Under the pieces are notes generated by a model. The model was not told the DNA's origin. It saw nothing but the letters and a program-made list of their open reading frames with translations, and searched no databases. 64,000 nucleotides of DNA from Myxococcota bacterium (GTDB lineage: Bacteria > Myxococcota_A > UBA796 > CAJQPC01), in NCBI GenBank assembly GCA_036229005.1, contig JAZAMN010000011.1, positions 96,001 through 160,000 of the forward strand. The letters run 5' to 3'. Of the stretch, positions 14,489 through 45,823 are shown in pieces. Each line of letters starts with the position of its first letter. Position 1 is the first letter of the stretch. The position numbers and the translations under genes were made by a program.

Positions 14489-16333
14489 TCAAATCCCCTC
14501 CCCCCGAAGCAGGAATGCCGTGTCCGAAACGGCAACCGCCCATACGAGCCAAGGGAGGCCACCATCCGCGGCTTCCATCGTGGTTACGCCGCCGTAGGGA
14601 TAACCTCCTCCCAATTCCACCACAGCATGGGGCTGGGACGGGAGAGCCCCGTGAAGCGGGTTGGCCCAAACCTCGACAGTCGGGTTTGTGCCATTGTCCC
14701 TGACACCACCGGCAACCAAATCCAGGTGGCTGTCCCCATCAACATTCCCAGCCTCAAGCCAGTAGACCCCGGTGAGCGAGTCTCCTTCGAGCAGCACGTC
14801 AGCATCCGAGGCATCGTAGTTGTTGAAGGTCTGTGGCCCCCCCAAGAACACGGCCACTTGGCCCACGAACTCGGAATCGTCGGCCTTGCTGGGTACACCG
14901 ACCGCAAAATCGTCGTAGCCATCCTCATCGAGGTCCGCCGCTACCCCGTTGGCTCCCAGCTGCCCCTCCGAGCTGCTGTCTGAAATCGATCCGTCAAAGT
15001 CTTGGACGGTTCGACTGCCGTTGAGCGAATCAGCGTAGAAGAAGTAGAACCGCTCCCCGTGAAGCGCGAGATCCGTTGCCCCATCTCCATCCCAGTCGGA
15101 GAAAACGGGCCGTCCAACATACATCCCAACCTTCACCCCGCTTGAATCGGTGATGACCACGTCCGCACTACCTGCGCCTGTGCCGCTGGTGGGAGCTACG
15201 TCCCAGAGATACACCGAAGCGGCCGAAAAGTCCTTTTCAAGCTGCGTGATCGCAAGACTCCCCTCATGTCCAACGACGCTCCATCCAAAGTACACGGAGT
15301 TTCGTTCCCTCTCAATCAGGACGTCTGCGCTGGCACCCAAGCCTGCGCTCCCCCCGAGAAAGAGCCTGACATACTCATTGGTCGCTCCGTACTCTGGCAC
15401 CAAGTTGGCGTTTCCAACGGCCAGGTCTTCGAAGCCATCGCCGTCCAAGTCTCCGGCCCAGAGTGACCCACCTACCTCATGGTAGTAGCCCTCCTCTGGC
15501 GTGTACTCCCAATCGGCACCGGCGGTCGACAAGACCGTCGTATCCCCTGGTTCGTCGAAGAGGTAGACGGCTCCCCTTCCATTGTCCGGTGCCCCAAGAA
15601 CTAGCGAGTCCGCCCCATCCCCATCAAAGTCACCTGCAGCCAGTCCCCAACCCAAGTGGAAGTTGGAACTGGATGAAACGACCACACCGGCATCACCAGC
15701 ACTCCACTCCCCCACCAACCCACACTCCGGCGCCCCCCCACTGCAGTCATTGTCGATGCCGTCCCCGCACACCTCCGTGCGGCCCGGGTTCGCCTGGGTC
15801 TGCTCGTCGTCGCAGTCCCCCGCTACCTGGACGTGCCCCACGGGCACATCACAAGCCTCGATCGCGCCGGCATCGTCGCCGTAGCCGTCTGAGTCGCCGT
15901 CCGGGTACCAGGTCAGGAACTCCAGCCCGTCGTCCTCGACGCCGTCACAGTCCTGATCGATGCCGTCGCAGACCTCCAGCTGACCGGGGTGGACCGAGGC
16001 GTTCCAGTCATCACAATCCTCTCCCTGCAGGACGTGCCCAGGCTCGAGCGCGCAGGAGTCGAAAGCCCCAGCGTCGTCGCCCCACCCGTCCCCGTCCTCG
16101 TCCGGGTACCAGGTCAGGAACTCCTGGCCCTCGTCCACGCTGCCGTCGCAGTCCTGGTCCACATCGTCGCAGTCCTCGCCCGCTCCGGGAAAGATCGCTG
16201 CGTCCTCGTCATCGCAGTCCGGACCGCCGAACTCCGCGGAGGGGAAGCCGTCCCCATCCATGTCCCGAGCCTGCTCGTACAGGTCGCGGTACTCCGCGGG
16301 ACTCGTCAGACACCCCACCAGCCAGATCCACAT
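14489..16333 (-). CDS. Lipoprotein with MopE-type (DCDD..PG..E.CDG.D.DCDG) repeats and FG-GAP integrin-alpha-like propeller
   Basis: Three Cys/Asp repeats then GDFDGDG..LVLGAP motifs; SD GAGGAGGT before ATG 16333. Confidence 0.85.
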   Translation of the reverse strand: MWIWLVGCLTSPAEYRDLYEQARDMDGDGFPSAEFGGPDCDDEDAAIFPGAGEDCDDVDQDCDGSVDEGQEFLTWYPDEDGDGWGDDAGAFDSCALEPGHVLQGEDCDDWNASVHPGQLEVCDGIDQDCDGVEDDGLEFLTWYPDGDSDGYGDDAGAIEACDVPVGHVQVAGDCDDEQTQANPGRTEVCGDGIDNDCSGGAPECGLVGEWSAGDAGVVVSSSSNFHLGWGLAAGDFDGDGADSLVLGAPDNGRGAVYLFDEPGDTTVLSTAGADWEYTPEEGYYHEVGGSLWAGDLDGDGFEDLAVGNANLVPEYGATNEYVRLFLGGSAGLGASADVLIERERNSVYFGWSVVGHEGSLAITQLEKDFSAASVYLWDVAPTSGTGAGSADVVITDSSGVKVGMYVGRPVFSDWDGDGATDLALHGERFYFFYADSLNGSRTVQDFDGSISDSSSEGQLGANGVAADLDEDGYDDFAVGVPSKADDSEFVGQVAVFLGGPQTFNNYDASDADVLLEGDSLTGVYWLEAGNVDGDSHLDLVAGGVRDNGTNPTVEVWANPLHGALPSQPHAVVELGGGYPYGGVTTMEAADGGLPWLVWAVAVSDTAFLLRGEGI

Positions 16334-16364
16334 TCTGACCTCCTCTTGGCCCCTTGATAGCACA

Positions 16365-16383
16365 ACGGGTGACCTCGCTTGGG
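16365..16383 (-). repeat. Dispersed 19-bp repeat copy 1
   Basis: CCCAAGCGAGGTCACCCGT on minus strand. Confidence 0.65.
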
Positions 16384-16461
16384 GGAGTTGGAGGAGGTGC
16401 CGACAGGACCCGGATCCCTGGATGGTGATCCCCGCAACTGGGGTCCACCGGGGTCCTCTCC

Positions 16462-16490
16462 TTGCCGAAGAGAGGGTGCTGGGCTACATG
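16462..16490 (+). promoter_or_regulatory. Sigma70-type promoter of rplC
   Basis: TTGCCG-N17-TACATG. Confidence 0.5.
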
Positions 16491-16571
16491 CGCCCGGCTG
16501 CGGGACACCTCCCGCGCTGCATTCCGTAAGAAGGCGGCAATGAAGCCGTCGTCCAATGCGAGGACATCAGA

Positions 16572-17213
16572 ATGAACAAGAACCCCGGCATCCTTGGCCG
16601 CAAGATCGGCATGACCCAGTTCTTCAACGAGGACGGCACCGTCGTCCCCGTGACCGTCGTCGAGGCGGGCCCCATGGTCGTGACCCAGATCAAGACCGTC
16701 GACACCGACGGCTACAACGCCATCCAGGTCGGCTTCGCCTCCCAGAAGGAAGGCCGCCTCAACAAGGCCATGAAGGGTCACTACGCCAAGGCTGGCGTGG
16801 CTCCCGCCAAGCTCCTCCGTGAGTTCCGCATGGACGACGTCTCCGGCTACACCGTCGGCCAGGAGATCAAGGTGGGCGAGGTCTTCGAGGCTGGCCAGAA
16901 GATCGACGTGACCGGCACCTCCAAGGGTCGCGGCTTCGCTGGCGTCATGAAGCGCCACAACTTCGCTGGCTTCATCCGCTCCCACGGTACCCACGAGTTC
17001 TTCCGTCACGGTGGCTCCATCGGTACCCGCCTGACCCCCGGCCACGTCGCCAAGGGCAAGAAGATGCCCGGTCACATGGGCGCCGCACGCACCACCGTGC
17101 AGAACCTGACCGTCGCCAAGGTCGACGCTGAGCAGAACCTGCTCTACATCAAGGGCGGCATCCCCGGCGCGCGCAACAAGCTCGTGATCGTCAAGGGCGC
17201 TGTCAAGGCCTGA
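16572..17213 (+). CDS. rplC: 50S ribosomal protein uL3 (stand-alone)
   Basis: GRKIGMTQ, DGYNAIQ, GTSKGRGFAG, KKMPGHMG. Confidence 0.98.
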   Translation: MNKNPGILGRKIGMTQFFNEDGTVVPVTVVEAGPMVVTQIKTVDTDGYNAIQVGFASQKEGRLNKAMKGHYAKAGVAPAKLLREFRMDDVSGYTVGQEIKVGEVFEAGQKIDVTGTSKGRGFAGVMKRHNFAGFIRSHGTHEFFRHGGSIGTRLTPGHVAKGKKMPGHMGAARTTVQNLTVAKVDAEQNLLYIKGGIPGARNKLVIVKGAVKA

Positions 17214-17235
17214 TCGGTCTCCGCGCCACACGCTG

Positions 17236-17260
17236 GGTCGGTCCTTCGGGGCCGGCCTTT
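17236..17260 (+). terminator. Intrinsic terminator after rplC
   Basis: GGTCGGTCC-TTCG-GGGCCGGCC-TTT. Confidence 0.7.
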
Positions 17261-17312
17261 CGTGCTCTGGGGGATGGGGTTGTTAGGCTCTTCGACGAGC
17301 CAGGAGGCCCCT

Positions 17313-18008: not shown

Positions 18009-18011
18009 GAG

Positions 18012-18668: not shown

Positions 18669-18673
18669 AGACT

Positions 18674-18707
18674 CCGGAGGCTCCCCTCACCAGGAGGAGC
18701 CTCCCGG
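18674..18707. terminator. Hairpin between convergent scoB and guaB
   Basis: GGAGGCTCC...GGAGCCTCC inverted repeat, no T tract. Confidence 0.5.
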
Positions 18708-20400: not shown

Positions 20401-21279
20401 ATGAATCGCGTGTGGATCCTGGCTCCTGTGCTCACCCTCGGACTGGTCGCTTGCGGCAAGAAGCACGAGGGCAACTACGAGGTCGCTGAGGCCGCCGCTG
20501 ACGCCCAGAACTCCAACGTGGAGCTGATGGTGACAGGCGCGGACGCTCTCTGGGAGAAGCGCGGCGAGGAGGAGTCTCTCCGCCAGGCCCTTGCCGCCTA
20601 CGAGGGGGTCGTCAGCGCCGACCCCACCAACCGCCACGCCTACGCCCGCCTCACCCGCGGCTACTACTTCCTGGGGGACGGCGTCCTCACTGAGCCGGCC
20701 GCCAAGGGCGAGGCCTGGAACACCTCCGTGAGCTGGGGCAAGAAGTGCCTCGCGCTCAACAGTGACTTCGTCGGGCGGGTCGAGTCTGGTCAGACCGAGG
20801 CCGAGGCCGGCGCCGCCTTCGGCCAGGAGGACATGCCCTGCATGTACTGGATGGCCAGCTCCCTCGGGAAGTGGGCCAAGGCCGAGTCCCTGGCCACCAT
20901 CCTCCAGTACAAGGATCAGATCTACGCCTGGATGCTCCACCTGGACGCAACGGATCCGGAGTACTTCTACGCCGCCGCTGACCGCTACCTGGGCGCCTAC
21001 TGGGCTGCCCTCCCCAGCTTCGCTGGCCAGGACCTCGACAAGAGCCAGGAGCACTTCCTGGCCGCCATCGAGGCCAACCCCGACCACTTCGGCAACCGGG
21101 TCCTCTACGCGGACTACTGGGCCAAGAAGACCCAGAACAAGGAGGTCTTCCTGGAGCAGCTCAACATGGTCGTGAGCGGCGATCCCAGCGTCATCGAGGG
21201 CCTCGAGCCCGAGCAGCGCGCCGAGCAGGTCAAGGCCCAGGCGCTGCTGGATCAGGCCGACGACCTCTTCGTCGATTGA
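20401..21279 (+). CDS. TRAP transporter T component (TatT-like TPR lipoprotein)
   Basis: Lipobox LVA-C, helical repeats, [14 protein letters not shown]; directly upstream of dctP. Confidence 0.8.
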
Positions 21280-21305
21280 ACTTCCCCTCTCCCGGAGCGC
21301 TCCCC

Positions 21306-22331
21306 ATGAAGAAGACCTGGATCAAGGCCGCTGGTGTCAGCGCGGTCGCCCTCGCTGTCCTGGCCACCCCCACCTCGGAGACCCAGGCCCAGGCCCAGTA
21401 CACCCTGAACTTCGGCACCGTCGCGCCGGAAGGCACCCCCTGGGCTGACCAGCTCCAGTCCTTCCGCAAGCGCATCCAGGACGACTCCAACGGCGCCATC
21501 AAGGTCGTGGTCCACCACGGCACCATGGGCGGCGAGATCGAGATGAGCCGGGACTGCCGCCGCGGCGAGCGCCTCCAGGGCGTCGGCGTGTCCACTGGTG
21601 CCCTCTCCGAGGGTGCCGGCGTTCCTCTGCTCCAGCTCCCCGAGCTCCCCTACCTCTTCCGCAACGAGGCCGAGGCCGACGCCGTCCTGGACGAGGTCCT
21701 CTACGAGCCCGTCGCCAAGCAGCTCGACGCCAAGGGCTTCGTGTTCAACACCTGGGCCGAGAACGGCTGGCGCAACTTCGCCACCAAGGGCGGCCCCGCC
21801 ACCACCCCGGAGGAGCTCGCCAAGTTCAAGATGCGCTCCCAGGAGTCCATGGTCCACACGGGCATGTACAAGGCCCTCGGGACCCAGGCGGTCGCCCTCC
21901 CCACCTCCGAGGTGCTGCAGTCCCTGAACACCGGCGTGGTCACCGGCTTCGACAACACCCCGCTGTTCTCCCTGGCCGCCGGCTGGATCAACCCGGTGAC
22001 CCACTACACGCTGTCCCGGCACATCTACCAGCCCGCCGCCATCGTGTACTCCAAGCGCTTCATGGCCCGCCTGAGCCCGGACCTGCAGAAGGTCGTGGAG
22101 GGCGATCCCGCCAAGGAGGCGTCCATCGGCCGAAAGGCCGTGCGCGCCCAGGAAGGCGACATGCTCGCGGTCATCAAGACCAAGGGCATCGAGATCGTCG
22201 ACCTCAGCGACGCTCAGCGCCAGGCCTTCGCCGCAAAGACCCAGGGGGTCCACATGGACTTCGTGGCAGCGAACCCCGGCGTGAAGGGTGAGTACGAGAA
22301 GACCATGGCCAAGCTCAAGGCCATGCGCTGA
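21306..22331 (+). CDS. dctP: TRAP substrate-binding protein
   Basis: [26 protein letters not shown]. Confidence 0.92.
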
Positions 22332-22394
22332 GCTTGCTCCGCCGCGCCGAGCCCTGAGTCCCAGGCGCTCGGCGCGCTCGTGCCTGGAGGCACC

Positions 22395-24950
22395 GTGTAT
22401 CGCCTGTTGACGGGATTCTTCGACGCCTTCGCGGGCGTCATTGGCGGGGTACAGGGTGGGATCCGCAGGGGCTGGAGGGCCTTCGCGGACGGTCCAGGCC
22501 AAACGCTGGTCTTCTTCCTGATCCTCAGCTTCACGGCACTGCGCCTCATCGTCGAGGACACGCTGGAGTGGATCGATCGGGTCATCGCCTGGCTCGAGAA
22601 GGCCATCATCGCGGTGGCCCTGCTGGCCATGACGGCCTTCTCCTTCCTGGACTACCTCCGCCGCGAAGCCGGCGTGGAGGCCCTGGAGGTCGAGGGTGGC
22701 CCCAACATGGCCATGCTGCTCATGGTCTGGGTAGGTTTCCTGGGCGCCTCCCTCGCCACCCGTCGCGGCGAACACCTCAGCGTCGACGCCACCGACCGGA
22801 TCCTGTCCCCGGGCGCCGCCAAGATCGCCAAGCGCTTCTCCGCGCTGGTGGCCGCCGGCCTCTCGTGGATCCTGATGAAGAACGCCTGGATGCTCACCGC
22901 AGAGGGCATCGAGTTCGGCGACACCATGGAGGGCCTGGTCGTCTGGCCCGCCCTGGTCACTCCCCTCAACTTCATCATCGGCAGGCTGCCCGGTGCAGAC
23001 GGGATCGCCTGGCCGGCGCTCCTGGGCTTCGGCCTGGTGTCCGCCATCGCCATGCGCCAGCTCCGCCGGTGGGAGCCCCAAGACAAGGCCGCACGGGAGC
23101 GCCAGGAGGCCCTGAACCTCCGTGACATCACCAACCCGGAGCTGCGCCCCAAGCTCCTCCGCCGCGCCGGACTGACGGCCCTGGAGGCCCTCGCGGGCGT
23201 CACCGGTGGGCTCGCCCTGCTGGCCGCTCTCCCGCTCATCTGGGAGCCCACCCTGGAGTTCGGCGACCCCGTCGTCTGGCCCAGCGTGGAGCCCGACGCC
23301 GGCTTCCCCATCTGGCTGGGCAACGTCGTCCTCCCCATGGCCTTCGCATTGATGGCCCTTCGCTTCGGCGTCGCCGGCATCCTCGGCCGCTTCAGCCCTG
23401 GCGCGGACGCCACCGAGGACGACGGCCCCATCGGCGCCAAGAAGCCCTCGGGCACCCGCACCCGGGCCGACAGCGTGATCGCCGGCTGGTTCCCTGGGCT
23501 GCTGCTGGGCGTCGGCGCCACCCTGGTGCTCGGCAAGCCCGCCATCATCCTCATCTGCGCCATCCTGCTGGTGCTCGTCGGCGCCCCCCTCTTCGTCGCC
23601 ATCGGCGTGGCCGCCTTCGCCAGCGTGGTCATCCTGTCGGACGGCGTGTCCGGCGTGGCCGTCGTCTCCGACATGTTCGAGGCCACCAAGAAGCAGGAGC
23701 TGCTCGCCATCCCCTTCTTCGTGCTCGCCGGCAACATCATGACCCAGGGCTCGCTCGCTGAGCGTCTGGTCGGCGTCGCGCGCGCAGCCATGGGCAAGAC
23801 CCCCGGCGGCCTCGGCCTCGCCACGATCTTCGCCTGTGTGATCTTCGCGGCCATCTCCGGGTCCTCACCCGTGACCGTCATCGCCATCGGCGGCCTGATG
23901 TTCCCCATGCTGCTCAAGGACCGCTACCCCGAGTCCTACAGCACCGGCGTCCTCGCCTCCGCTGGCTCCCTGGGCATCATCATCCCGCCCAGCATCCCGA
24001 TGATCCTCTACGCGGTGGTGACCTCCAACCCCCGCAACCCCATGAGCCCCATCGACCTCTTCCTGGCCGGTCTGCTCCCGGGGCTCTTCATCGCTGGCGT
24101 GCTCGTCGTCTACACCCTCTACGTGACCCGCCCCTCCGGCGGCGTGGACATCAAGATCCCCAAGGTCGAGGGCGGCTGGCTCAAGAACATGGGCCGCAGC
24201 CTCAAGCGCGGCATCCTCGCGCTGATGCTCCCCGTCCTGATCCTGGGCGGCATCTACGGTGTCTTCGCCCCCATCGGGATCCGCTTCACCGTGACCGAGG
24301 CCGCGGCCGTCTCGGTGGTGTACGCGATCGTCATCGAGCTCTTCGTCCACCGCGAGATGAGCCCTCGCCAGCTCACCAAGGTGCTGGTCGAGTCCGGCGT
24401 GATGATGGGCAGCCTCTTCGTCATCATCGTGCTCGCCATCGCCTTCAACAAGTTCCTGGCCTTCGAGAAGATCCCCGACCAGGCCACCGAGTGGCTCGCC
24501 GCCCACGTGGACTCCAAGTGGGAGTTCCTGCTCCTGGTCAACCTCTTCCTCATCGCGCTGGGGATGGTCATGGAGATCATCTCCGCCATCCTCATCGTCG
24601 CCCCGCTCCTGGCCCCGATCGCCTCGAGCTTCGGCATCGACCCGATCCACTTCGGGATCATCTTCATCGTCAACCTGGAGCTCGGCTACCTCACCCCGCC
24701 GATGGGCATCAACCTCTTCGTCGCCAGCACGGTGTTCAAGCAACCCATCGTCAAGGTGATCAAGTCGGCCCTGCCCTTCCTCTTCCTGATGGTGTTCTCC
24801 CTGGCGGTCATCGCCATCTTCCCCACCCTCTCGACCGCGATGCCCTGCGCCGTCAACAATGACTTCGACCGGGAGGCGACCGCGGCCTGCATCTGGCCGG
24901 ACGAGCCCCCCGCCGATACCCAAGAGGCAGACAGCCCCGGAGCCGACTGA
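22395..24950 (+). CDS. Fused TRAP small/large permease (DctQ-DctM)
   Basis: Q motif GFLGASLA..RGEHLSVD; M motifs LLAIPFF, FAAISGSS, IPPSIP, GYLTPP; SD GGAGG. Confidence 0.92.
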   Translation: MYRLLTGFFDAFAGVIGGVQGGIRRGWRAFADGPGQTLVFFLILSFTALRLIVEDTLEWIDRVIAWLEKAIIAVALLAMTAFSFLDYLRREAGVEALEVEGGPNMAMLLMVWVGFLGASLATRRGEHLSVDATDRILSPGAAKIAKRFSALVAAGLSWILMKNAWMLTAEGIEFGDTMEGLVVWPALVTPLNFIIGRLPGADGIAWPALLGFGLVSAIAMRQLRRWEPQDKAARERQEALNLRDITNPELRPKLLRRAGLTALEALAGVTGGLALLAALPLIWEPTLEFGDPVVWPSVEPDAGFPIWLGNVVLPMAFALMALRFGVAGILGRFSPGADATEDDGPIGAKKPSGTRTRADSVIAGWFPGLLLGVGATLVLGKPAIILICAILLVLVGAPLFVAIGVAAFASVVILSDGVSGVAVVSDMFEATKKQELLAIPFFVLAGNIMTQGSLAERLVGVARAAMGKTPGGLGLATIFACVIFAAISGSSPVTVIAIGGLMFPMLLKDRYPESYSTGVLASAGSLGIIIPPSIPMILYAVVTSNPRNPMSPIDLFLAGLLPGLFIAGVLVVYTLYVTRPSGGVDIKIPKVEGGWLKNMGRSLKRGILALMLPVLILGGIYGVFAPIGIRFTVTEAAAVSVVYAIVIELFVHREMSPRQLTKVLVESGVMMGSLFVIIVLAIAFNKFLAFEKIPDQATEWLAAHVDSKWEFLLLVNLFLIALGMVMEIISAILIVAPLLAPIASSFGIDPIHFGIIFIVNLELGYLTPPMGINLFVASTVFKQPIVKVIKSALPFLFLMVFSLAVIAIFPTLSTAMPCAVNNDFDREATAACIWPDEPPADTQEADSPGAD

Positions 24951-30019: not shown

Positions 30020-30607
30020 ATGCTGCTTCTGGCCTTGCTCAGCGCTGGTGACATCTTCATGCGGGTCGAAGAAGACGGCTCGCTGACCTTCACCGATGTC
30101 CCCGCCGAAGAAGAGAGCTTCACCCTGTTCCTTCGGGAGAAGCCCCTCCCCGCTCCGACTGCGGTCTCCCTCAAGACCTTCCCGCTGCTGGACACCTGGG
30201 ACGAGGACATCCTGGACGCCGCCAAGCGCTACGGGGTCGAGGCGGCCCTGATCAAGGCCGTCTGCGTGGCGGAATCGGGCATGAACCCCAACGCGGTCTC
30301 CCCCGCCGGCGCCCAGGGGCTGATGCAGCTCATGCCGGCGACCGCCACATCGCTGGCCGTCCTGGACGCCTTCGATCCCATCCAGAACATCGACGGAGGC
30401 ACCCGCTACCTCAAGCGGCAGCTCCGCCGCTTCGGCTCCAAGGAGCTCGCGCTGGCCGCGTACAACGCCGGGCCTCACAACGTCGAGAAGCACGGGGGCA
30501 TCCCTCCCTTCGAGGAGACCCAGCGCTACGTCCCCCGGGTCCTCTCGCTCTACGAGTTCTTCCGGGTGCAGCGCCCCGTGGTCGCGCCCGTTAGCCAAAC
30601 CGAGTGA
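30020..30607 (+). CDS. Lytic transglycosylase (SLT) with DUF4124-like N-domain
   Basis: [25 protein letters not shown]. Confidence 0.92.
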
Positions 30608-31335: not shown

Positions 31336-32967
31336 ATGCTCACGCTGTTCATTGGATGCTTGGTTTCGCCAGGGGAATACGAACTACTGCTTGAGGACGC
31401 TCAGGACGCCGACGACGACGGCGACATCTCGGAGGTCTACGGTGGTGCCGACTGCGATGATGCTGATCACGCAATCCACAGCCGAGCCCAGGAACTTTGC
31501 GACCAGATCGACAACGACTGCGACGGTCTCATTGACGAGGGCATAGCCACCCAAGCCTGGTACCTCGATGCCGACCGCGATGGCTTTGGAGACTTGAGCA
31601 CAGCCGTGGACCGCTGCTCCGCCCCTGAGGACCATGTCCTGGAGCCTGGCGACTGCGACGACAGCGAGGATGATGTGAACCCTGATGCAGAAGAGATCTG
31701 CAACGACGGGATAGACAATGACTGCGACGGGGGAGCTCCCGAATGTGCATGGGGCGGGACCTATGACCTGGCCCTGGCTGACGCCGTGATCCGGAGCGAA
31801 TCAGGCCTCGACTACTTTGGACTCACGCTGGCTGTCGTCGACGCCAACGGAGATGGCACGGATGAAGTCGCCATCGGTGCCCCGTTCCGAGACAGCGACG
31901 AGTTCTCCGACGCTGGCGTTGTCTACCTCTTCTCCAACGTGACCGGCAGCCACTTCGCGCACGAAGAGGCAACTTGGCAGGTTCCAGGAACTGAGTCTGG
32001 GGCTGGCCTCGGCCTCTACAGCCTTGGTCTCTCCGATTTCAATGGCGATGGCTACGGGGATCTGGCAGTTGGCGGTGACGACCGCTACGGAGCAGTACAT
32101 GTATGGACCGGCTCAGCGGCCGGCTACAGCCAAAGTCCTCAGCTGACATTCACCGCCCCCGAGTCAGGGCGGACCTCTTGGGGAGAGGGAATGGCCTCAA
32201 TCCAAGTCGAAGACGGGACCACTGGCTTGGCCATCGGCGCTCCTGACGCCAGCATACCAGCCCTCTATCTATGGTTCGACCTGGTTTCGGCCACCAATCC
32301 AGCCTCCAGTGCTGACCTGGTCGTGGAGGGAGAAGGTATCGGCGAGTCTCTCTCGAGCACAGCATCCGGCGACCTCGACGGAGATGGACAGGGCGATCTG
32401 GTGCTCACTTTGGAGGACAGAGACATCGTTGCCCTTGGATACGGGCCCCTTCCCAGGGGAGTCATCCCTGTCGCCGACCTCGGTAGGCAACTCCACGCAG
32501 AAGGGCTTGAGCCTGGAACCGGGCCAGCTGTCGGAGACTTCGATGGAGATGGCTACGACGACGGTGTCTTCGCAGACATCAGCACAGGCACACTCTACCT
32601 TCATCACGGGTCAGCGTCCCGAGAGTGGGCAGACCACATCGCCGACACGGATGTCGTTATCGAGACCGGCTACGAAGGAGGCGGACTCGTAATGTCAGCG
32701 GGGAGTCTCGTTTCCGAGACAGACCTGTTGGTGACTGTTCCCAGGTACGTCGAAGACAACTGGCAGGGAACCCTCATACAAGTCTTCTCATCCCCCATCT
32801 CCGTAGACTCGAGCCCGGCGGTGACTGCCACCGGCGACGGTCGTTACTGTGGATTTGGGGTCGCCACCGCCGATCTGAACGGTGACAACGCGCCCGATCT
32901 CATCGTGTCATGTCCTCTGGCAGAAGACCGCGGTCTGGCCTACATCCAATTTGGCCGAACACTCTAA
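31336..32967 (+). CDS. Lipoprotein with two MopE-type repeats and FG-GAP propeller (paralogue of 14489-16333)
   Basis: Repeats plus DANGDGTDEVAIGAP, DFNGDGYGDLAVG; SD AGGAGG. Confidence 0.85.
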   Translation: MLTLFIGCLVSPGEYELLLEDAQDADDDGDISEVYGGADCDDADHAIHSRAQELCDQIDNDCDGLIDEGIATQAWYLDADRDGFGDLSTAVDRCSAPEDHVLEPGDCDDSEDDVNPDAEEICNDGIDNDCDGGAPECAWGGTYDLALADAVIRSESGLDYFGLTLAVVDANGDGTDEVAIGAPFRDSDEFSDAGVVYLFSNVTGSHFAHEEATWQVPGTESGAGLGLYSLGLSDFNGDGYGDLAVGGDDRYGAVHVWTGSAAGYSQSPQLTFTAPESGRTSWGEGMASIQVEDGTTGLAIGAPDASIPALYLWFDLVSATNPASSADLVVEGEGIGESLSSTASGDLDGDGQGDLVLTLEDRDIVALGYGPLPRGVIPVADLGRQLHAEGLEPGTGPAVGDFDGDGYDDGVFADISTGTLYLHHGSASREWADHIADTDVVIETGYEGGGLVMSAGSLVSETDLLVTVPRYVEDNWQGTLIQVFSSPISVDSSPAVTATGDGRYCGFGVATADLNGDNAPDLIVSCPLAEDRGLAYIQFGRTL

Positions 32968-34484
32968 AAAATGATGTCCGCCCCCGCATCAATCCGGAGA
33001 CTGTAGGTCTGGGAGCACCCCTTCGTGACCCAACTTGATGGATAGATCCGCAGCGCCCAGTCGCTATCCGTCCCCCACTCCTTGGGCTTGGTCAGCCTCA
33101 ACACCCCCCCACCAGACACGCTGGCAGAGGTGTAGAGCACGCTCCCATTGTCAAGGTCGTACAGCTCCGCGACCCAAGCCCCGCTGGCAGGGAGGCTCGT
33201 GATTTGGACGGTGAAATAGGCTGACTCGAATAGGTTGTCGCCAACGTCGAAGACAAACCAGTCCTCGTCTCCTGGCCCCGACATTGTCAGGCCGGAGACC
33301 GACAGGCTGTCACCGCTCCACAACAAGCCATCAACCTCCCCAAAGTCATAGGCCCCCGCCTGCGACTCATTCTCTTCGTAACTGTCCCACCAGTCCTCGT
33401 TGTTGTCCCCATCGCAGTCCTGATCGACCCCGTCGCAGACCTCGGCCTCGCCAGGAGACACCTTGGGGTTGCCGTCATCGCAGTCCCCCATGTTCTCGGT
33501 GTAGCCGTCCCCGTCGTTGTCGTAGTTGTCGGGGTCGATCACGATGACCTGCGCGCTCGCGGATCCCTCGTTCCCGTCCTCGTCGACGGCCCGCAGTGTC
33601 AGGGTGTGCGTGCCCTCCATCAGCGAGAAGGATGAGGACACCTTGCCGGAGCTGTCCGCAGCCCCTCCCCACAGAGAGCCCTGCAGGTCCGAGTCGAAGG
33701 AGAGGGAGAGGGCATTGGGCGCCGTCAGATCATCGCCCACCGTCGCGGACAGCGTGATGGTGTCGGTCGTCCAGTGGTTGGCTCCGTCCTTCGGCGAGGT
33801 CAGCGTGACCGTAGGCCGGGCATCCTCCAGGATCTCGATGCCGACGGTGGCGCTCCCGACCTTGTCCTCCAGATCCAGGCAGCGCAGCGACAATGTCGCC
33901 GCCCCGATGCTGAGCCCGGTGAGCGCCTGGGTGACACCGCCGTTGGCCGCGGGGCTCCCCGTCCACAGCATGCCGTCGCGGGAAGAGACGATCTCGCAAG
34001 ACAGCTCCCCCGGAAGCTGGACGTCGTCCTCCACGAAGGCCACCACGTTGACCTCGGCGCTGGCAGGGAACGCGTCCCCCTCCATGGGGCCGATGATGTT
34101 CACGACCGGGGACCCGGGGACGTTCTCGCCGTTGCCGACCTCGATCTCGACCGTGGCCCGACCGGCCTCGCCCGAGGCGTCGATGGCCTCCAGCGTGATC
34201 ACGTGCGGTCCGGGAGAGAGGCCCGTGACCGGCAGCAGCACGACCCCGCTGGCGTCTGGGACCGCCGTGCCCAGCTCTCCATCCACAGAGGAGGCCCAGG
34301 TGACCTCCAGGGTCTGCGGGTCCTGCTGGTCGTCTCGGGCGATCCCCGCGAGCTCGACGCTGTCCCCGGGGGGAACGGCCATGCCCTCTTCGGGCGAGGT
34401 GATGCTCACCGAGGGCGGCGTGTTGTAGACGCCCACCTCATTGTCATTGCAGGCGACAAACGCCAGAAGGAGGACAGAGCTCAT
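32964..34484 (-). CDS. Lipoprotein with three Ig-like domains, one MopE-type repeat and a PPC-like C-domain
   Basis: Lipobox FVA-C; P.V.I.SP..G..H.ITL.A.D repeats; GDEDWF. Confidence 0.8.
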   Translation of the reverse strand: MSSVLLLAFVACNDNEVGVYNTPPSVSITSPEEGMAVPPGDSVELAGIARDDQQDPQTLEVTWASSVDGELGTAVPDASGVVLLPVTGLSPGPHVITLEAIDASGEAGRATVEIEVGNGENVPGSPVVNIIGPMEGDAFPASAEVNVVAFVEDDVQLPGELSCEIVSSRDGMLWTGSPAANGGVTQALTGLSIGAATLSLRCLDLEDKVGSATVGIEILEDARPTVTLTSPKDGANHWTTDTITLSATVGDDLTAPNALSLSFDSDLQGSLWGGAADSSGKVSSSFSLMEGTHTLTLRAVDEDGNEGSASAQVIVIDPDNYDNDGDGYTENMGDCDDGNPKVSPGEAEVCDGVDQDCDGDNNEDWWDSYEENESQAGAYDFGEVDGLLWSGDSLSVSGLTMSGPGDEDWFVFDVGDNLFESAYFTVQITSLPASGAWVAELYDLDNGSVLYTSASVSGGGVLRLTKPKEWGTDSDWALRIYPSSWVTKGCSQTYSLRIDAGADIIF

Positions 34485-36541: not shown

Positions 36542-37816
36542 ATGCTGCTGCTCCTGATCTCCTGTTGGACCAAAGAGATCCCCGCACACCTGCAGCCAGG
36601 GCTGGCTGCCCCGGTGACCGCTCCTGTGTCTGCCCCGGTGGACCTGTCAGAGGCGATGGACCGCCTGGTCGCTCGGGATCCCCTGCTCCGCCGGCCCGAT
36701 CTCGACGCAGCGGCCCAATGGCCTCCGCTGGATCCCGCTCTGAGCGCCTACCTGGACAGGGTGGCCGAGCAACCCGCTGAGCCCGCAGCCTTCCAGTCCC
36801 TGGAACAGGAGCACCCCGGAACGGTCGCGGTCGTGCTGGCCCGAGGCTGGCGACTCGCCGCCATCGAGCACTTCGGCACCCAGCTCAGCTCCAGCCTCCC
36901 GCTCCAACGCCAGGCTGGGCTGTGGCTCATGCCCTTTGGCGCCAGCGGTGTGACTCCCCAGGACCGGGGTCCCTGGAGCTGGCTGCCCCCCGATCAGATC
37001 CTCACCTATGCTGAACAGTGGGTCCTCCGCGCTTGGCTGGAGGCACCGGACCTTCCCCAGCAAGCCCTGGCGGAGACTCTGTCCGACCCGACCTTCGACC
37101 GGCTCGCCCTCTCCCCAGAGGGCCTGATCCTGAGCGCCCCCCGCGCCGGCGATGCCGACCTCAAAGCGCTCAATGACCTGGTCACGCTCTTCTTGGAGTC
37201 GGTCGCGGCAGACAGCAACAGCGAGCAGGCCCGACACCGGGAGAACATCGAGGCCCTGGAGGAGCAACTTGGGGTGGAGCACGCCGCACTCGAGACCTAC
37301 GCCCAGTCGGTCCGGCTGGAGCTCGGCTCTGCAGGCGGTGACCGGGGACGCGGGGGCGCCTTGATGGCCTGGCAAGTAGAGCGCTGGCTGGATCCCTCCC
37401 GCGGCTGGGGCCTGGACCGCAGCGAGAACCTGCAGAGAGCCGCCCGGTGGGATCCCAGCCTTGAGGCGCCCGCCGCAGTCCTTCAGGTCGCACTCCTCAA
37501 GGACCTCGTGGACCGACTGGAGGTCGGACTCAAGAGAGGCCGCATCACCCACCTGCTGCCTCCGCTGGCCGACGCACTGAACGGAGTGGGGCACGCCCGC
37601 CTCCCCATGCGATGGCTGGAGCGTCCTGGCCCTGAGCCGGCGACCTGGTTGGATCTGACCCGGGCCGCGGGAGCGCCGGATGGCACCACCCCAGAAGAGG
37701 GGCTCGCCGCGCTCAACGCACTGCTCGCCGAGCGGTGCACGGTGGCGCTGAGGAACACGCTGCCGTCGGAGCAGCGCGCGCTCATCGAGCGCATCCAACG
37801 CAAGGCCACCCAGTGA
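36542..37816 (+). CDS. Hypothetical helical lipoprotein
   Basis: Long ORF starting MLLLLIS-C; family not recognised; alternative TTG start at 36506. Confidence 0.6.
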   Translation: MLLLLISCWTKEIPAHLQPGLAAPVTAPVSAPVDLSEAMDRLVARDPLLRRPDLDAAAQWPPLDPALSAYLDRVAEQPAEPAAFQSLEQEHPGTVAVVLARGWRLAAIEHFGTQLSSSLPLQRQAGLWLMPFGASGVTPQDRGPWSWLPPDQILTYAEQWVLRAWLEAPDLPQQALAETLSDPTFDRLALSPEGLILSAPRAGDADLKALNDLVTLFLESVAADSNSEQARHRENIEALEEQLGVEHAALETYAQSVRLELGSAGGDRGRGGALMAWQVERWLDPSRGWGLDRSENLQRAARWDPSLEAPAAVLQVALLKDLVDRLEVGLKRGRITHLLPPLADALNGVGHARLPMRWLERPGPEPATWLDLTRAAGAPDGTTPEEGLAALNALLAERCTVALRNTLPSEQRALIERIQRKATQ

Positions 37817-38788: not shown

Positions 38789-40690
38789 TCAGCTACCGGT
38801 GCAGGAGAAGTCGATGGTCATGGTGTCGGAGTCGGTGGCGCCGTAGCAGTCGGTGACCTGGAGACCCATGATCACGCTCGCGGTGTTGGTGCTGCCGTAG
38901 GTCGCGGAGACCCCGGAGACCGTGACCTCGGGGGTGTCGCTGCTGCTGTCGTCGATGGAGACGGTCGCGCCGTCGTTGTCGTCGACCGTCCAGCTGTAGG
39001 ACATCCAGTAGGCGGACTCAGCGTCACTGGAACCCGAGGCATCCAGGTCGAACTTGTAGTCGTCGCAGTCATCGCAGCTATAGGACGCGCCGTAGCTGAT
39101 GGCCTGGCAGGTCACGCTGTCGCTGTAGCTCTGGTCGCTACCAGCGTCCGCGACCGGCGCGGTGTTGCTGCCTGCTGCCGTGACCACGGCGGTGACGGTG
39201 GAGGGGTAGCTGTCAGCACCACCGTCGTTCACCGTCAGGGTGAAGACGTAGGTGCCGTCGACATCCGGGGTGAAGGTGGGGTTGGCAGCGGTGTAGTCGC
39301 TGAGATCGGAGGTGGTGGCCACCGAGGTCGCGGGCGCCGAGGTCAGCTCCCACTCGTAGGTCAGAACACCGGAACTATCGGGGTCGTAGGAGCTGGAGCC
39401 GTCCAGGTAGAGCACGCTGCAGTGCTCCAGGCTGGAGGAGCTGTCGTAGGTTCCAACCGCGATGGGCATGACCTCGGCATCACCGTCGCAGTCGTTGTCG
39501 ATGCCGGTCTCGACCTCGGGCGCGCCGGGGTAGACGGTGACGCTGGTGTCGTCACAGTCGCCGTCGTCGCGGGAGAACCCGTCGCCGTCGTGATCGATGT
39601 GGGAGCACAGCTCGTTCTCCTCACCCGGAGAGCCGGCGTCACCCAGCAGCTCCCAGGAGTCCAAGGAGGTGCACCAGTTGTTGACGTCGTCGTTCAACGT
39701 CGCGTCGACGCTGCCGGGATCCAGGTTGATCGAGCCACCATCGGGGTCCGGCATCGTGGCGCCATCATCCCAGCTCAGGCTGTCGATCACGACCCCTTCT
39801 GCGGACAGGGAGACGTCGTCACTCTCGTTGGAGAGCGAGATCCCCGAGTACTCGTAGTCGACGGTCATGTTGCCGTTGGTGGAGGTGTTCGAGTTCGCGC
39901 CCAGCACCAGGTACTCGCCCGCCCCGATGACCAGGGGGTCACCAGGAGCGATCACGTGCGACTCACTCCCGGACTGGATCTGGATGCCGGCGAGATTCAG
40001 ATCCCCGGCGGTGGTGTTGTAGATCTCGAACCACTCACCGTTCGGGTCGGTGATGTTCTTGGGGTTGTTCATCACCTCGGTGATGACCAACTCACCGCCT
40101 GCCCAGGGCAGCTCGTCCGTCATGCCGTCGCAGTCGTTGTCCACGCCATCACCGTCGACCTCGGTGTTGCCGGGGTAGGCGCTGGCGTCGGAGTCGTCGC
40201 AGTCGTCCTGGCACTGGGTCACGCCGTCACCATCGACGTCGTAGCCCTCGTCCACGAGGCTGTCGCCGTCGTTGTCCAGGCCGTCGCAGATCTCGCTGCC
40301 CACGCAGTCAGCGACACCGTCGCCGTCTGCATCAGCGAAGCCCTCGTCGACGCCACCGTCGCCGTCGTTGTCCAGGCCGTCGCAGTCCTCGACGTCCATG
40401 CAGTCCGCGGTGGAGTCGCCGTCGCTGTCTGCGAAGCCCTCGTCCGTCAGGCCGTTGCAGTTGTCGTCGACGCCGTTGCAGTCTTCGGTGCGGCCCGGGT
40501 AGACGTCGGCGTTGTTGTCGTCGCAGTCCCCGTCTTCCGCGGTGACGCCGTCAAGGTCGGCGTCGGTGGGGTCGGAGCTGTCTACGGGAATGGGCTCTTC
40601 GGAGTCCACCACGAGCTCGTCGTCCTTACAGGCGGCGAGCGTGAGGAGGAGGGAAGACGCGAACAGGGCCGATGCGGTCTTGATGTTCAT
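38789..40690 (-). CDS. Lipoprotein with MopE-type repeats, lamin-tail domain and PKD-like domains
   Basis: Lipobox LAA-C; LVITEVMNNP..GEWFEIYN; LDGSSSYDPD; PVADAG. Confidence 0.85.
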   Translation of the reverse strand: MNIKTASALFASSLLLTLAACKDDELVVDSEEPIPVDSSDPTDADLDGVTAEDGDCDDNNADVYPGRTEDCNGVDDNCNGLTDEGFADSDGDSTADCMDVEDCDGLDNDGDGGVDEGFADADGDGVADCVGSEICDGLDNDGDSLVDEGYDVDGDGVTQCQDDCDDSDASAYPGNTEVDGDGVDNDCDGMTDELPWAGGELVITEVMNNPKNITDPNGEWFEIYNTTAGDLNLAGIQIQSGSESHVIAPGDPLVIGAGEYLVLGANSNTSTNGNMTVDYEYSGISLSNESDDVSLSAEGVVIDSLSWDDGATMPDPDGGSINLDPGSVDATLNDDVNNWCTSLDSWELLGDAGSPGEENELCSHIDHDGDGFSRDDGDCDDTSVTVYPGAPEVETGIDNDCDGDAEVMPIAVGTYDSSSSLEHCSVLYLDGSSSYDPDSSGVLTYEWELTSAPATSVATTSDLSDYTAANPTFTPDVDGTYVFTLTVNDGGADSYPSTVTAVVTAAGSNTAPVADAGSDQSYSDSVTCQAISYGASYSCDDCDDYKFDLDASGSSDAESAYWMSYSWTVDDNDGATVSIDDSSSDTPEVTVSGVSATYGSTNTASVIMGLQVTDCYGATDSDTMTIDFSCTGS

Positions 40691-40981: not shown

Positions 40982-41057
40982 GCGGGAGTAGCTCAGTTGG
41001 TAGAGCACCAGCTTGCCATGCTGGCTGTCGCGGGTTCGAATCCCGTCTCCCGCTCCA
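40982..41057 (+). tRNA. tRNA-Gly (GCC)
   Basis: Cloverleaf, anticodon arm CCAGC-TTGCCAT-GCTGG, GTTCGAA, encoded CCA. Confidence 0.97.
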
Positions 41058-42306: not shown

Positions 42307-43454
42307 GGTGCCTCCAAGCGCCCGTCGCGCACCACGAGCGGCCCTTGGTGTCCCTCGGGCGAATCCGGACGCGCCAACACATTCCCTCCTAGCACGACCA
42401 CGCCTGCGGGGATCCGGCGGCCGGGGGCGACCCAGACCCCGCTCCCCACCGTGGTCCCCTCCCCCACGCAGATCCCCGCCATCCCCATCGGCGCCGGGAC
42501 GATCTGACCGCCGACCTCCACGCGGACCGGGCTCCCATCCAGGCGCTGGTCCATGCCGGTGCTCCCCCGCTTGAACGCCGCCTGAGGCCCCAGGACACCG
42601 AGCTGCAGGACCCCACCCAGACTCGCTCCGCTGCCGAGGACCCCGAACTTGAGCATCGCCTGCCGCTGCACGACCGCCTGAGGCCCCAGCACACTCCCCT
42701 CCACCAGCGCGAGCGGCTCGACCCGCGCGCCAGGCCCCAGGATGCTGCCTCGGACGACGGCGCCCGCCTCGACCTTTGCGCCCGGGAGGAGCAGCGAGGC
42801 CTCCACGATCGCGTCCGGGTGGACCTCGCCGCCACGAGAGAGCCCCTGCGGGATGCGGCGGGGACCCGAGCGAAAGAAGGCACGGACCACAGCCCAGGCA
42901 GCCCCGAGCCCCTCTCCTCCCAGCTCCAGCCAGAGCGTGGGGGGGAGCAAGAGCAGGTTCGCCCAGAGCAGCCCGATCCAGCTCCGGACCGGGAGGATGA
43001 GCCGATCGCTGACCATCAGGGCCTCACCGCCGGGCACCAGCTCTCCCAGGGGCTTCTCCTGGGGGTCGAGGCAGATCTCCTTGGCCTCACGGATGCGCTC
43101 ACCGAGCGGACTCGGGCTGGCACCGTGCAGATAGACGAGCCCCTCTCCCGCAAGCGAGGACATGCGCAGCATCTCCCCGATCGCACCCGACAGGACGATC
43201 CGGCCGTCCCTGCCCGCCTGCTGCCCAGCTTCCCAGGCGGCCTCGAGCGCCTTGGGGCCGAGCGCACACCCAACGGGGACCACCAACACGGCCCCCTGCT
43301 CCGGGTCCGCGCACGGCGTGAACCCCGCCGCTGCAACCGCGATCACGCTGGCGTCCTGGAGACTGTGGCGCCCCAGCGGGAGGTCCTGAGCGGAGCCAAG
43401 TCCCGGAAGCTCCAGGCTCCCAGACTGCAGCAGCGCGCGCCTAGTAGAGGGCAT
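42303..43454 (-). CDS. Protein with C-terminal hexapeptide (left-handed beta-helix) repeats
   Basis: SILGPGARVE, SVLGPQAVVQ, VGEGTTVGSGVWV. Confidence 0.65.
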   Translation of the reverse strand: MPSTRRALLQSGSLELPGLGSAQDLPLGRHSLQDASVIAVAAAGFTPCADPEQGAVLVVPVGCALGPKALEAAWEAGQQAGRDGRIVLSGAIGEMLRMSSLAGEGLVYLHGASPSPLGERIREAKEICLDPQEKPLGELVPGGEALMVSDRLILPVRSWIGLLWANLLLLPPTLWLELGGEGLGAAWAVVRAFFRSGPRRIPQGLSRGGEVHPDAIVEASLLLPGAKVEAGAVVRGSILGPGARVEPLALVEGSVLGPQAVVQRQAMLKFGVLGSGASLGGVLQLGVLGPQAAFKRGSTGMDQRLDGSPVRVEVGGQIVPAPMGMAGICVGEGTTVGSGVWVAPGRRIPAGVVVLGGNVLARPDSPEGHQGPLVVRDGRLEAP

Positions 43455-45123
43455 GGATGCGCACCCCATTCCCCTCGGCGATGGGCGACTGGACGCTCTC
43501 CAGGTAGCGCACCGCCTCGTCGTGCATGTCCGGCCGGGCCGTGGGGTCTTCGTGGATCACCAGGTAGCGGATGCCCTTGCTGTGGGCAGCCCCCTGTGTC
43601 CGCTGCAGGGGCTTCCCATCGCGGGTCCGCGCGTCCGAGAGCAGCGCGCTCCAGACCGCTCGCGAGGCCGGGTTGTTGGGGAAGTTGAGGGTGCCGGTCA
43701 GCGGCTTGTCATGCGCGGTCTGCTCGTAGAGGTAGGAGCGCCCACCGGCCACGGGGTAGTTGATGACCGCGCCCGAGGGGGCCTCGGCGAGCGCCTGGAA
43801 GGCGGGGTCCAGCTCGAAGTCGGCGTGCTCGGGCAGCCCGGCGACTGGCGAGAGGAGGCGGAGATCCACCACCAAGAGGGCGAGGAGGGCCGGCGCCGCC
43901 CAGGGCCTGTCGATCCGGGCCACCGCCCCCGCCGCGAGGAGCGCGAGCCCCAAGGAGGGAAGCACGGCGAGGCGCCACAAGAGAGAGAGGGACGAGAAGC
44001 CCGGCGCCCCCTCCAGCAGGAAGTACGGGAGTGGGACGGCCAATCGGCGATCGATGACCCAAGCGGCCCCGTCCATGCAGACCACCGGCCCCATCGCCAG
44101 GACGAGCCCCGCTCCGCCTGCGAGCCAGATCACACCGTCGATGTCCTCGTCTGCGCCCCGGCGGCGGAGAGCGAGTGCGCCCCCAGCAGCCAGCAAGAGG
44201 GTGAGCCCCAGGTAGTGCGAGTGGATGAAGCCCTCTCCATACCGGGAGAGCTTGCGGAAGTCGGGGCTGCGGAAGTCGCCGGGGACCCACCAGCCGCGGG
44301 GATCCGCGGGGCCGATGCTGCGCCGGACGGTGCTGAGCTCCTTGTCGGTCTTGATGCCGACCAGGTTCTGCGGGTGTTGGACGCCTGCGCGCACCCCGGC
44401 GGCGACGGGCACCGTGAGCACGAGGGCCACCCCTGCGACCAGGGCACCTCTGCTGAGGCGCTGACGCCAAGGCACCCGCGGGCCACCGAGGACAAGCAAG
44501 GCGAGCCAGAAGATCCAGGCGGTCACCCCCAGATACCAGCTCCCGAGCGCCGCCAGGAAGAGGCCGACGGCGCCCTTGACGATGGCCTTGGCCCCTCCCC
44601 GTTCGAGGGCCTGGAGCATCCAGAGGACGGCGAGGGGGAGCCAGCCGCCTCCGATGGCCTCGCTGGTGCCGTTCTGCATGCCGGAGACGAGCACAGGGGC
44701 GAGGGCGAACGCGACGCCGGCGACATAGCCAGCCGCCTCCTTCCGCCAGAGGTGGACCGCGAGCGCGTGGGCGCAGAGTCCGGCGAAGGCGACGTGGAGG
44801 AGGCAGAGAGCGCCATAGGCCACCAAGGGGCCCGCGAGAGCGACCAGCGGGAGGGCAAGGAGCGCGTTCAGAGGGTCGGCGACCTGGATCACACCGCCGT
44901 CGGGCCAGCCCAGCAGGGTCGTGTGCCAAGGCAGGTCCCCCTGGGCGAGGCTGTGCTGCACGAACCACAGCGACCAGAGGGAGTTGCCGAGGTCGCTCCG
45001 TGCAGCCCCCGGGACCGTTCGGCCCAGCTCCGGGAGCAGCGGCCAGGTCAACACAACCGCCACGCCCGAGTACACAGCCAGACGGCTCAAGCGGGTGGGC
45101 CAGGGAGAGCGGGGAGAGGTCAC
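43441..45123 (-). CDS. Polytopic membrane protein, possibly GT-C fold
   Basis: About 11-12 hydrophobic segments, acidic residue in first loop (SDLGNSLW), soluble C-domain. Confidence 0.65.
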   Translation of the reverse strand: MTSPRSPWPTRLSRLAVYSGVAVVLTWPLLPELGRTVPGAARSDLGNSLWSLWFVQHSLAQGDLPWHTTLLGWPDGGVIQVADPLNALLALPLVALAGPLVAYGALCLLHVAFAGLCAHALAVHLWRKEAAGYVAGVAFALAPVLVSGMQNGTSEAIGGGWLPLAVLWMLQALERGGAKAIVKGAVGLFLAALGSWYLGVTAWIFWLALLVLGGPRVPWRQRLSRGALVAGVALVLTVPVAAGVRAGVQHPQNLVGIKTDKELSTVRRSIGPADPRGWWVPGDFRSPDFRKLSRYGEGFIHSHYLGLTLLLAAGGALALRRRGADEDIDGVIWLAGGAGLVLAMGPVVCMDGAAWVIDRRLAVPLPYFLLEGAPGFSSLSLLWRLAVLPSLGLALLAAGAVARIDRPWAAPALLALLVVDLRLLSPVAGLPEHADFELDPAFQALAEAPSGAVINYPVAGGRSYLYEQTAHDKPLTGTLNFPNNPASRAVWSALLSDARTRDGKPLQRTQGAAHSKGIRYLVIHEDPTARPDMHDEAVRYLESVQSPIAEGNGVRIHALY

Positions 45124-45169
45124 AGGCGTCCGAGCGGGAGCTGGAGTCTATCACCGCACCCGGCGGGAG

Positions 45170-45190
45170 TTATCCACAAGCTGTGGACAA
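45170..45190. promoter_or_regulatory. Inverted pair of DnaA boxes
   Basis: TTATCCACA (perfect)-agc-TGTGGACAA (one mismatch). Confidence 0.7.
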
Positions 45191-45373
45191 CAGCAGAAAT
45201 GGCGCCGACGTGACAAGCGCCCCACAACTTCGCCCAAACCGCTGTTTTTATTGGGGTATTCCCGTGCTCAAAACTTGCGCACGCACTCCCAATCCGATCT
45301 TGTCCGCAAGCAAGGCCCCCGCGTGCTCCCCCTGGGGATGGCGGTTATCGGGCCGATGAAGGAGTGTCTTTCC

Positions 45374-45823
45374 ATGCTGACCCTGCCCCTGTTGATCGCG
45401 TCCCTGTTCACCGCCTGCGGAGAGAAGGAGGCGACCGAGACCGCCGCCCCCGCTGAGGCCGCAACCACCGAGAGCAGCGTGGTCCCCGCAGACAAGAACT
45501 CTCAGGCCTTCGCCGAGAGCCTGTTCGCCGAGGACTTCGAGGGCATGAAGCCCGTTGAAGGCGACGGCGTGGTCCTCACCTACAAGCGCCTGAGCTTCAA
45601 CCCCGACGGGAGCTGGAAGGCCGAGGGCGTGGTCGAGGTCATGGACGAGGGCATGGAGTGTGTCGAGAGCGGCTCCTGGAGCATGGAGCCTGCTGACTCC
45701 AAGAGCGTCGGCACGGTGAGCTGGGACCTGGAGAAGACCAACTGCGCCGGCCGCGAGTCCGGCGGGACGACCCGCGCCGAGTTCAGCTTCGACGGCGGCG
45801 ACTACTCCATGAAGATGCGCTGA
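45374..45823 (+). CDS. Small beta-rich lipoprotein
   Basis: SD AAGGAG; lipobox FTA-C. Confidence 0.75.
   Translation: MLTLPLLIASLFTACGEKEATETAAPAEAATTESSVVPADKNSQAFAESLFAEDFEGMKPVEGDGVVLTYKRLSFNPDGSWKAEGVVEVMDEGMECVESGSWSMEPADSKSVGTVSWDLEKTNCAGRESGGTTRAEFSFDGGDYSMKMR

Follow-up and report, generated by a model that had tools for sequence, protein, structure and literature searches.

Short, uncharged N-termini on predicted lipoproteins of a Myxococcota order as candidate minimal Sec signals

The stretch of DNA analysed here, referred to as the window, comprises 64,000 nucleotides of a Myxococcota bacterium (G000:C11:96001-160000), whose genome measures 6.4 Mb and has a GC content of 70%. Seven of its genes, named here after the coordinate at which they start, begin with a short hydrophobic stretch that contains neither Lys nor Arg; in three of them, genes 16333, 31336 and 36542, a Cys follows at position 8. 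Together with three control lipoproteins and two genes of the translocon, they are located as follows.

37..957, plus strand: predicted lipoprotein, 306 aa, Cys14, GTG start, coupled to the upstream stop
14489..16333, minus strand: predicted lipoprotein, 614 aa, signal MWIWLVG-C (Cys8), MopE-type repeats and FG-GAP propeller
30020..30607, plus strand: SLT lytic transglycosylase, 195 aa, Cys-free uncharged start, putative signal peptidase I type
31336..32967, plus strand: predicted lipoprotein, 543 aa, signal MLTLFIG-C (Cys8), MopE-type repeats and FG-GAP propeller
32964..34484, minus strand: predicted lipoprotein, 506 aa, Cys12, Ig-like, PKD and MopE domains
36542..37816, plus strand: predicted lipoprotein, 424 aa, signal MLLLLIS-C (Cys8), no Pfam family
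45374..45823, plus strand: predicted lipoprotein, 149 aa, Cys15, start less certain
13274..14422, plus strand: control, lipoprotein, signal of 15 residues with Arg, Ig-like domains
20401..21279, plus strand: control, TRAP-T TatT lipoprotein, ordinary signal with Arg
38789..40690, minus strand: control, MopE/LTD lipoprotein, ordinary signal of 20 residues with Lys
50614..50961, plus strand: secG
54502..55854, minus strand: secY

All seven N-termini lie where the initial annotation of this DNA had placed them, five of them on the plus strand and two, genes 16333 and 34484, on the minus; gene 37 has the N-terminus described, although it falls outside the range that had been quoted. But how certain are the starts? 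Those of genes 31336 and 30020 are unambiguous: the former has an in-frame stop 38 codons upstream, with no ATG, GTG or TTG in between, as had been reported, nor any CTG, ATT, ATC or ATA, and the latter has an in-frame stop 7 codons upstream. Gene 30020 encodes no Cys, and its putative cleavage site is a guess. The sequence also supports the starts of gene 16333, which is preceded by the Shine-Dalgarno (SD) motif GAGGAGGT and has a single upstream GTG at -10 without an SD, and of gene 37, whose GTG overlaps the stop (GTGA) of an upstream TonB receptor with an uncharged signal of its own. For gene 36542, the proposed check of start conservation came out in favour of the short form: M-x6-C is encoded from the same ATG in 3/3 same-genus orthologues found (G001-G003; none was found in G011 or G015), and the upstream TTG at -12 is not in frame in the orthologue from G001. 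The start of gene 34484 is weaker, with a TTG and a GTG upstream at -14 and -18, both lacking an SD, and with homologues in G030 and G022 that carry longer signals with Arg. The alternative starts noted earlier for genes 16333 and 34484 thus do lack an SD, but the 8 in-frame upstream starts of gene 45374 had gone unmentioned; they leave this gene ambiguous, as an ATG at -6 would add Lys2, without an SD, while its own start is preceded by the SD AAGGAG. An Rfam scan returned two tRNAs and nothing else, and no windows resembling this one by place were found. Protein atlas clusters that contain gene 31336 point to Myxococcota.

The seven-residue uncharged signal pattern is confirmed as real and genome-wide. 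Genes were called with our own hexamer caller (5391 genes), whose start model makes no direct use of the protein N-terminus; because the caller missed gene 31336 and picked a longer start (upstream TTG) for gene 36542, the genome-wide counts are approximate. A strict short rule, Met-(Leu-rich)-[A/G/S]-Cys with the Cys at positions 7-14, applies to 649 of the 5391 called genes and the long rule to 188, which makes ~77% of the predicted lipoproteins short-type. The short signals place 6-13 uncharged hydrophobic residues before the Cys, with the mode at Cys 8-10, and the histogram of first-Cys positions that had been suggested as a check falls into two groups, peaking at 8-10 and forming a low shoulder over 15-23. 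Normal signals do coexist with the short ones, as was noted before, both genome-wide in the 188 long-rule lipoproteins and in the window among the controls.

When each gene is read from the first ATG, GTG or TTG after the stop, the short rule holds for 386 of 5395 genes, whereas the nulls give 29 hits among 26774 internal Met and 67 among 37048 shadow ORFs (0.11-0.18%; odds ratio 42.5), and 223 of the 386 also lack an upstream CTG, ATT, ATC or ATA. Coupling to an upstream stop (ATGA/TGATG) was found for 137 starts (445 with neighbour scored). In 125 of the 649 genes, the distance from stop to Cys is below 15 codons, so that no codon could yield a signal of at least 15 residues. A Cys-free class accompanies the lipoproteins: 437 of the 5391 genes have uncharged Cys-free starts, 332 of them without a later membrane helix, at a null of 4.1% of internal Met, and the same genome holds 289 canonical-looking counterparts. 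The Cys-free class is noisier than the short-lipobox class.

The short lipoprotein signals follow a recognizable grammar. Leu accounts for 42-67% at each core position, and strongly hydrophobic residues (LIVFMW) average 4.7-6.3 for Cys 8-14. Residue -1 is Ala, Gly or Ser in 695 of 733 unfiltered cases, -3 is Leu in 64%, and Leu also predominates at -2 (67%), which departs from the standard [LV][ASTVI][GAS]C; the -3/-1/+2 profile is the same in short and long lipoproteins. Length and charge switch together: Lys or Arg precedes the Cys in 15/695 proteins with Cys at or before position 14 versus 118/130 with Cys at or beyond position 17. Since residues 2-3 include Lys or Arg in 11/684 short signals (69/130 long ones) compared with 23% of all proteins, charge is depleted below background. 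The few Cys 7-14 signals of G026 mostly retain Lys or Arg (5/6). Among the 332 Cys-free starts, 221 have an A-x-A-like site, counted with a loose motif that has no null for comparison. As for twin-arginine signals, the short class lacks Arg by definition, and 8 other proteins match the RR motif. Type IV prepilin leaders were discarded as a category, with the hydrophobic run beginning at Met and Glu not among the common residues at positions 2-6, and so were signal anchors of about 20 hydrophobic residues, only 4-6 strongly hydrophobic residues being present here.

What do these signals carry? Most passengers resemble extracytoplasmic proteins, in agreement with the earlier impression. A Pfam scan of 72 of the 235 proteins that have Cys at or before position 10, lack an upstream start and do not exceed 700 residues, drawn from gene-dense regions, gave hits in 34, mostly to extracytoplasmic types, and none in 38. 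The hits include FG-GAP, MopE and Ig-like domains, three c-type cytochromes, S41 and M15 peptidases, a beta-lactamase fold, phospholipase D, copper monooxygenase and a C-type lectin, with Memo, HEAT and DUF2252 as ambiguous types. The motif CXXCH occurs in 36/649 short lipoproteins versus 17/2810 cytoplasmic-like proteins, some of these 17 being missed signals (odds ratio 9.6), and the patterns that we assume to mark CcmF and CcmC each match one protein in the genome. Of 14 TonB plug-domain proteins, 10 have a signal without Lys or Arg, only 3 of which lack an upstream start, and 4 have a charged one (one after start correction). Passengers of this kind, such as c-type cytochromes and TonB receptors, need Sec export, and the proteins found here are probably exported.

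The trait does not extend beyond the order, within which its level varies by degrees; homologues with normal signals occur in some genomes of the order and in one outgroup from the class. The idea that the trait belongs to a lineage is upheld by genome-wide counts and by the genomes of relatives. A Cys8 DNA pattern has 60 matches in the source genome, 51 of them at called starts, with controls at 1-9. The same pattern yields 44-90 matches among members of the genus, 1-64 among the remaining genomes of the family, 13-39 in 8/9 genomes of family f7 and 0-1 in f2; outside the order, none of 15 class genomes exceeds 3 matches and none of 283 other genomes of the phylum exceeds 5. A Cys11 pattern is present in 109/110 order genomes and is noisy (medians of 11 in the order, 4 in the class and 3 in the phylum). 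In 400-kb samples, the ratio of short to long lipoproteins is 34:10 in the source genome (G000), 47:15 in G001, 22:29 in G030, 1:24 in G026, 0:30 in G022 and 4:40 in G155 (0 from first starts). At gene level, G155 is the sole class outgroup sampled, and family f1 contributes none of its low-count members. Homologues of the short lipoproteins, taken as best hits at 26-76% identity and hence of putative orthology, are short in 26/36 cases in G001 and mixed in G030 (4 short and 7 long of 17); in G026 (9/12), G022 (9/13) and G155 (5/11) they are long and none is short. BamD, with starts read by eye, lacks Lys and Arg in G001, G002, G003, G011 and G027 and has an Arg in the source genome. The high-count lineages do not form one clade on a SecY tree (FastTree, branch support left aside), which suggests repeated expansion of short signals within the order.

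The source genome encodes one each of SecA, SecY, YidC, Ffh, FtsY, Lnt, LolA and Fmt, two deformylases, LepB with four extra S26-like proteins, four Lgt and two LspA (over the cut-off). No dedicated export route was found among this machinery, and the separate route proposed in the initial annotation is not supported, the canonical set being complete. Loss of formylation, which would make the free amino group a source of charge, is ruled out by fmt and the two deformylases. So is loss of SRP, as Ffh is present in 30/30 genomes and a second hit at the level of FtsY turns up in 29/30. Aligned over its full length with Ffh of the B. subtilis/E. coli type, Ffh shows no obvious M-domain insertion; a detailed comparison across genomes took in one relative. 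The catalytic motifs of LspA are ordinary. A special Lgt or Lsp paralogue had also been proposed, and this is not supported: 31/31 relatives have 3-6 Lgt matches at whatever level of the trait, which rules out Lgt copy number as the cause. Lgt H103 is replaced in 33/33 aligned sequences, class outgroups included, and was likewise dismissed as a cause. In families f1 and f7, an Asn precedes Lgt E243 in 12/12 best hits, as it does in 1/18 of the others, a comparison that mixes paralogues and non-independent kin.

Is the translocon itself altered, as had been supposed? At the level of the order it is. In SecY, Ala185 (codon 55302-55300) corresponds to the pore-ring residue Ile187 of E. coli and Thr190 to Phe192; I187 is described in PMC2171872 as a member of the isoleucine ring. 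This position is Ala or Ser in 28/28 order genomes (two partial order loci left out) and Ile in 27/30 outgroups (12/12 class, 15/18 phylum), F192 is replaced by Thr in 24/28 order genomes, and the remaining ring positions are retained (I82 in 26/28; I86, I191, I278 and I408 in 28/28). I187 is one of 8 order-specific columns among 210 conserved ones, and one of 8 columns would hit the ring by chance with P=0.21; the share of switched columns (8/210) does not differ significantly from that of ribosomal proteins (3/268; p=0.066). Thr, Ser, Ala or Val occupies position 187 in 16/76 SecY among the matches listed, 15 of them outside the order. A search for SecY columns that separate high from low in-order genomes produced three weak ones, none convincing. 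SecA carries N369S and L372Y in 18/18 order genomes (one divergent copy left out), with N9/Q1/S1 at 369 and L9/V2 at 372 in the outgroups (n=11). We take L372 to line the signal groove, for which a literature search gave no support, and its neighbour A373 is presumably a prlD site. G022 and G026 carry both the SecY and the SecA changes yet nearly lack short lipoprotein signals (0 and 1); because of these order members, the substitutions would be permissive at most, and the suspicion of an altered translocon survives in this reduced form. Ring changes have been linked to relaxed signal recognition in PMC3164448, PMC2171872 and PMC13537251; I187 as a prl site was not found in the passages available from PMC2171872, PMC3164448, PMC13537251, PMC3518225, PMC8082313, PMC8612361 and PMC2585858.

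We favour, at an even chance, a reading in which these N-termini are minimal Sec signals without a basic n-region that use ordinary Sec, Lgt and LspA by means of a buried formyl-Met and an order-wide permissive translocase. A formyl-Met followed by about 5-8 hydrophobic residues (Leu about 60%) would enter the ordinary SecYEG channel, with a hand-over that is probably co-translational via SRP, together with SecA. A 7-residue helix covers ~10 angstrom versus ~30 for the core of a bilayer. Without a start charge on the cytoplasmic face, the short peptide might sink into the bilayer rather than span it, placing the lipobox Cys at the outer leaflet for ordinary Lgt, LspA and Lnt to act on; it is in this leaflet that the Cys is modified, according to PMC8048626. 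The Cys-free versions would be cleaved by signal peptidase I. Looser proofreading of signals across the order (SecY I187A/S, SecA L372Y/N369S) may have come first, after which some lineages shortened their signals. Because a charged start would hold the lipobox off the outer leaflet, short signals should be uncharged and long ones free to carry charge, and this is the pattern observed. A more far-reaching version seems possible to us but not probable: the order would have evolved a naturally relaxed Sec translocase plus a second signal grammar, a formylated, uncharged 7-residue peptide buried in the membrane, through which extreme lineages route about one fifth of their proteins, possibly via a dedicated factor.

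Could ordinary SecYEG, SRP, Lgt and LspA simply suffice for poly-Leu minimal signals, the SecY and SecA changes being incidental and the signals spreading by drift or economy in lipoprotein-rich genomes? The substitutions are not co-extensive with the trait, a chance hit on the ring is no rarity at 0.21, and short and long signals swap among paralogues (27/171 best paralogues are long). It also counts for this explanation that in engineered E. coli signals hydrophobicity compensates for lost charge. However, free tolerance should have led to a wider spread, contrary to the Cys8 counts in class and phylum, and the minimum in E. coli is 15-16 residues (PMC5963308), so that we consider the explanation rather unlikely. 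Lineages with a high level of the trait might instead possess a dedicated factor, such as an Lgt, LspA or S26 paralogue that has specialised, an altered YidC or Ffh, or a novel targeting protein. This explanation would agree with the sharply bimodal lengths, the patchiness of the trait inside the order, the surplus of Lgt, LspA and S26-like proteins and the Asn before Lgt E243. It is nevertheless unlikely, and clearly more so, given that Lgt numbers are independent of the trait, H103 loss extends to class outgroups, the LspA motifs are ordinary and Ffh has no obvious M-domain insertion.

Two further explanations concern the N-termini themselves. If the proteins were exported with the short peptide uncleaved or unlipidated, it would be kept as a small hydrophobic anchor; the small residue at -1, the -3/-1/+2 profile shared with long lipoproteins and the normal lipoprotein signals of homologues make this improbable. 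Hardly credible, finally, is an artefact of start codons, with true starts upstream and normal signals. It draws on the 263 of 649 model calls that have an upstream start or depend on the start model, and on the ambiguity of gene 45374, but it is refuted for the 125 genes in which 15 residues cannot be reached from any codon, and it is opposed by the 223 genes without even a non-standard start upstream and by the out-of-frame TTG of gene 36542 in G001.

As minimal Sec signals, the N-termini can be placed beside known systems. With Sec/signal peptidase II signals of the E. coli Lpp type (PMC8048626), they share the Leu-rich core, the L-x-[A/G/S]-C lipobox, an acidic, Pro-rich tether after the Cys and a genome encoding Lgt, LspA, Lnt and LolA, and relatives' homologues use the canonical form; unlike these, they lack a basic n-region and have 6-13 residues before the Cys, whereas E. 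coli signal peptides have a median of 22 and a minimum of 15-16 residues, as given in PMC5963308. The Cys-free starts, found on TonB receptors, an SLT and BamD orthologues, resemble Sec/signal peptidase I signals in their hydrophobic core, behind which most have a putative A-x-A-like site at 11-18, but have no n-region and often only 10-15 residues. The short signals thus depart from canonical ones in two defining features, the basic n-region and the length, yet most likely work like them. The translocase, in turn, is reminiscent of the E. coli suppressors prlA (SecY) and prlD (SecA) in having a changed isoleucine-ring residue and a SecA change beside A373; unlike in those mutants, the substitutions are natural and fixed in a whole order, and the relaxed phenotype is putative here. 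No description of such short uncharged signals was found in a full-text literature search that covered subscription journals thinly, nor any passage on short signals in the parts of the Myxococcota secretome paper PMC11495043 that were available.

Textbooks describe bacterial signal peptides as having a basic n-region and enough length to span the membrane, and a single genome here offers hundreds of natural counter-examples. Short signals whose homologues in relatives have the normal form provide ready substrates for studying the role of the n-region and the minimum length, and the SecY and SecA of the order are candidate natural variants for the proofreading of signals by the translocon. Where secretome predictors have learned from canonical signals, their counts of exported proteins in this lineage may be too low.

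BamD, which is usually a lipoprotein, was compared across 30 genomes of the order (L104-L133), including the genome under study (G000):

G000:C7:59545-60351, BamD

Judging the N-termini by eye, a lipobox Cys is present in only four of the 30 orthologues (G008, G010, G014 and G018), and the remaining ones carry predicted SPase I-type signals. In 400 kb of G026, an order member nearly without short lipoprotein signals, 23 Cys-free uncharged starts were counted versus a single short lipoprotein signal (L276-L286, L267-L275); the background of such Cys-free starts is 6-7 in the class outgroup G155 and in G022. Given this imbalance in G026, the two signal classes may evolve separately. Besides LepB, G000 encodes four divergent S26 peptidase-like proteins (L015-L019; contigs C52, C47, C73 and C24), which are candidates for processing the Cys-free short signals.

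In the lipidation enzyme Lgt (L347-L376), H103 is substituted in all 33 sequences, by Tyr, Trp, Leu, Gln and others. The residue preceding E243 is Asn in the best matches from families f1 and f7 and also in G022. In the SecY tree, a record titled Enterobacterales (L024) groups with family f2 of the order and is probably mislabelled.

The window itself additionally contains:

1095-13108, gene cluster encoding two OMP beta-barrels along with three TPR proteins and one FHA protein
20401-24950, TRAP-T transporter (TatT, DctP, DctQ-DctM fusion)
40982-41054, tRNA gene
51027-51111, tRNA gene

The OMP/TPR/FHA cluster, which we take to resemble myxobacterial gliding loci, has mostly ordinary signals. 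Two MopE/FG-GAP genes (14489-16333 and 31336-32967) have a GC content of 63% and 61%, respectively, compared to 70% for the genome, making their recent acquisition possible.
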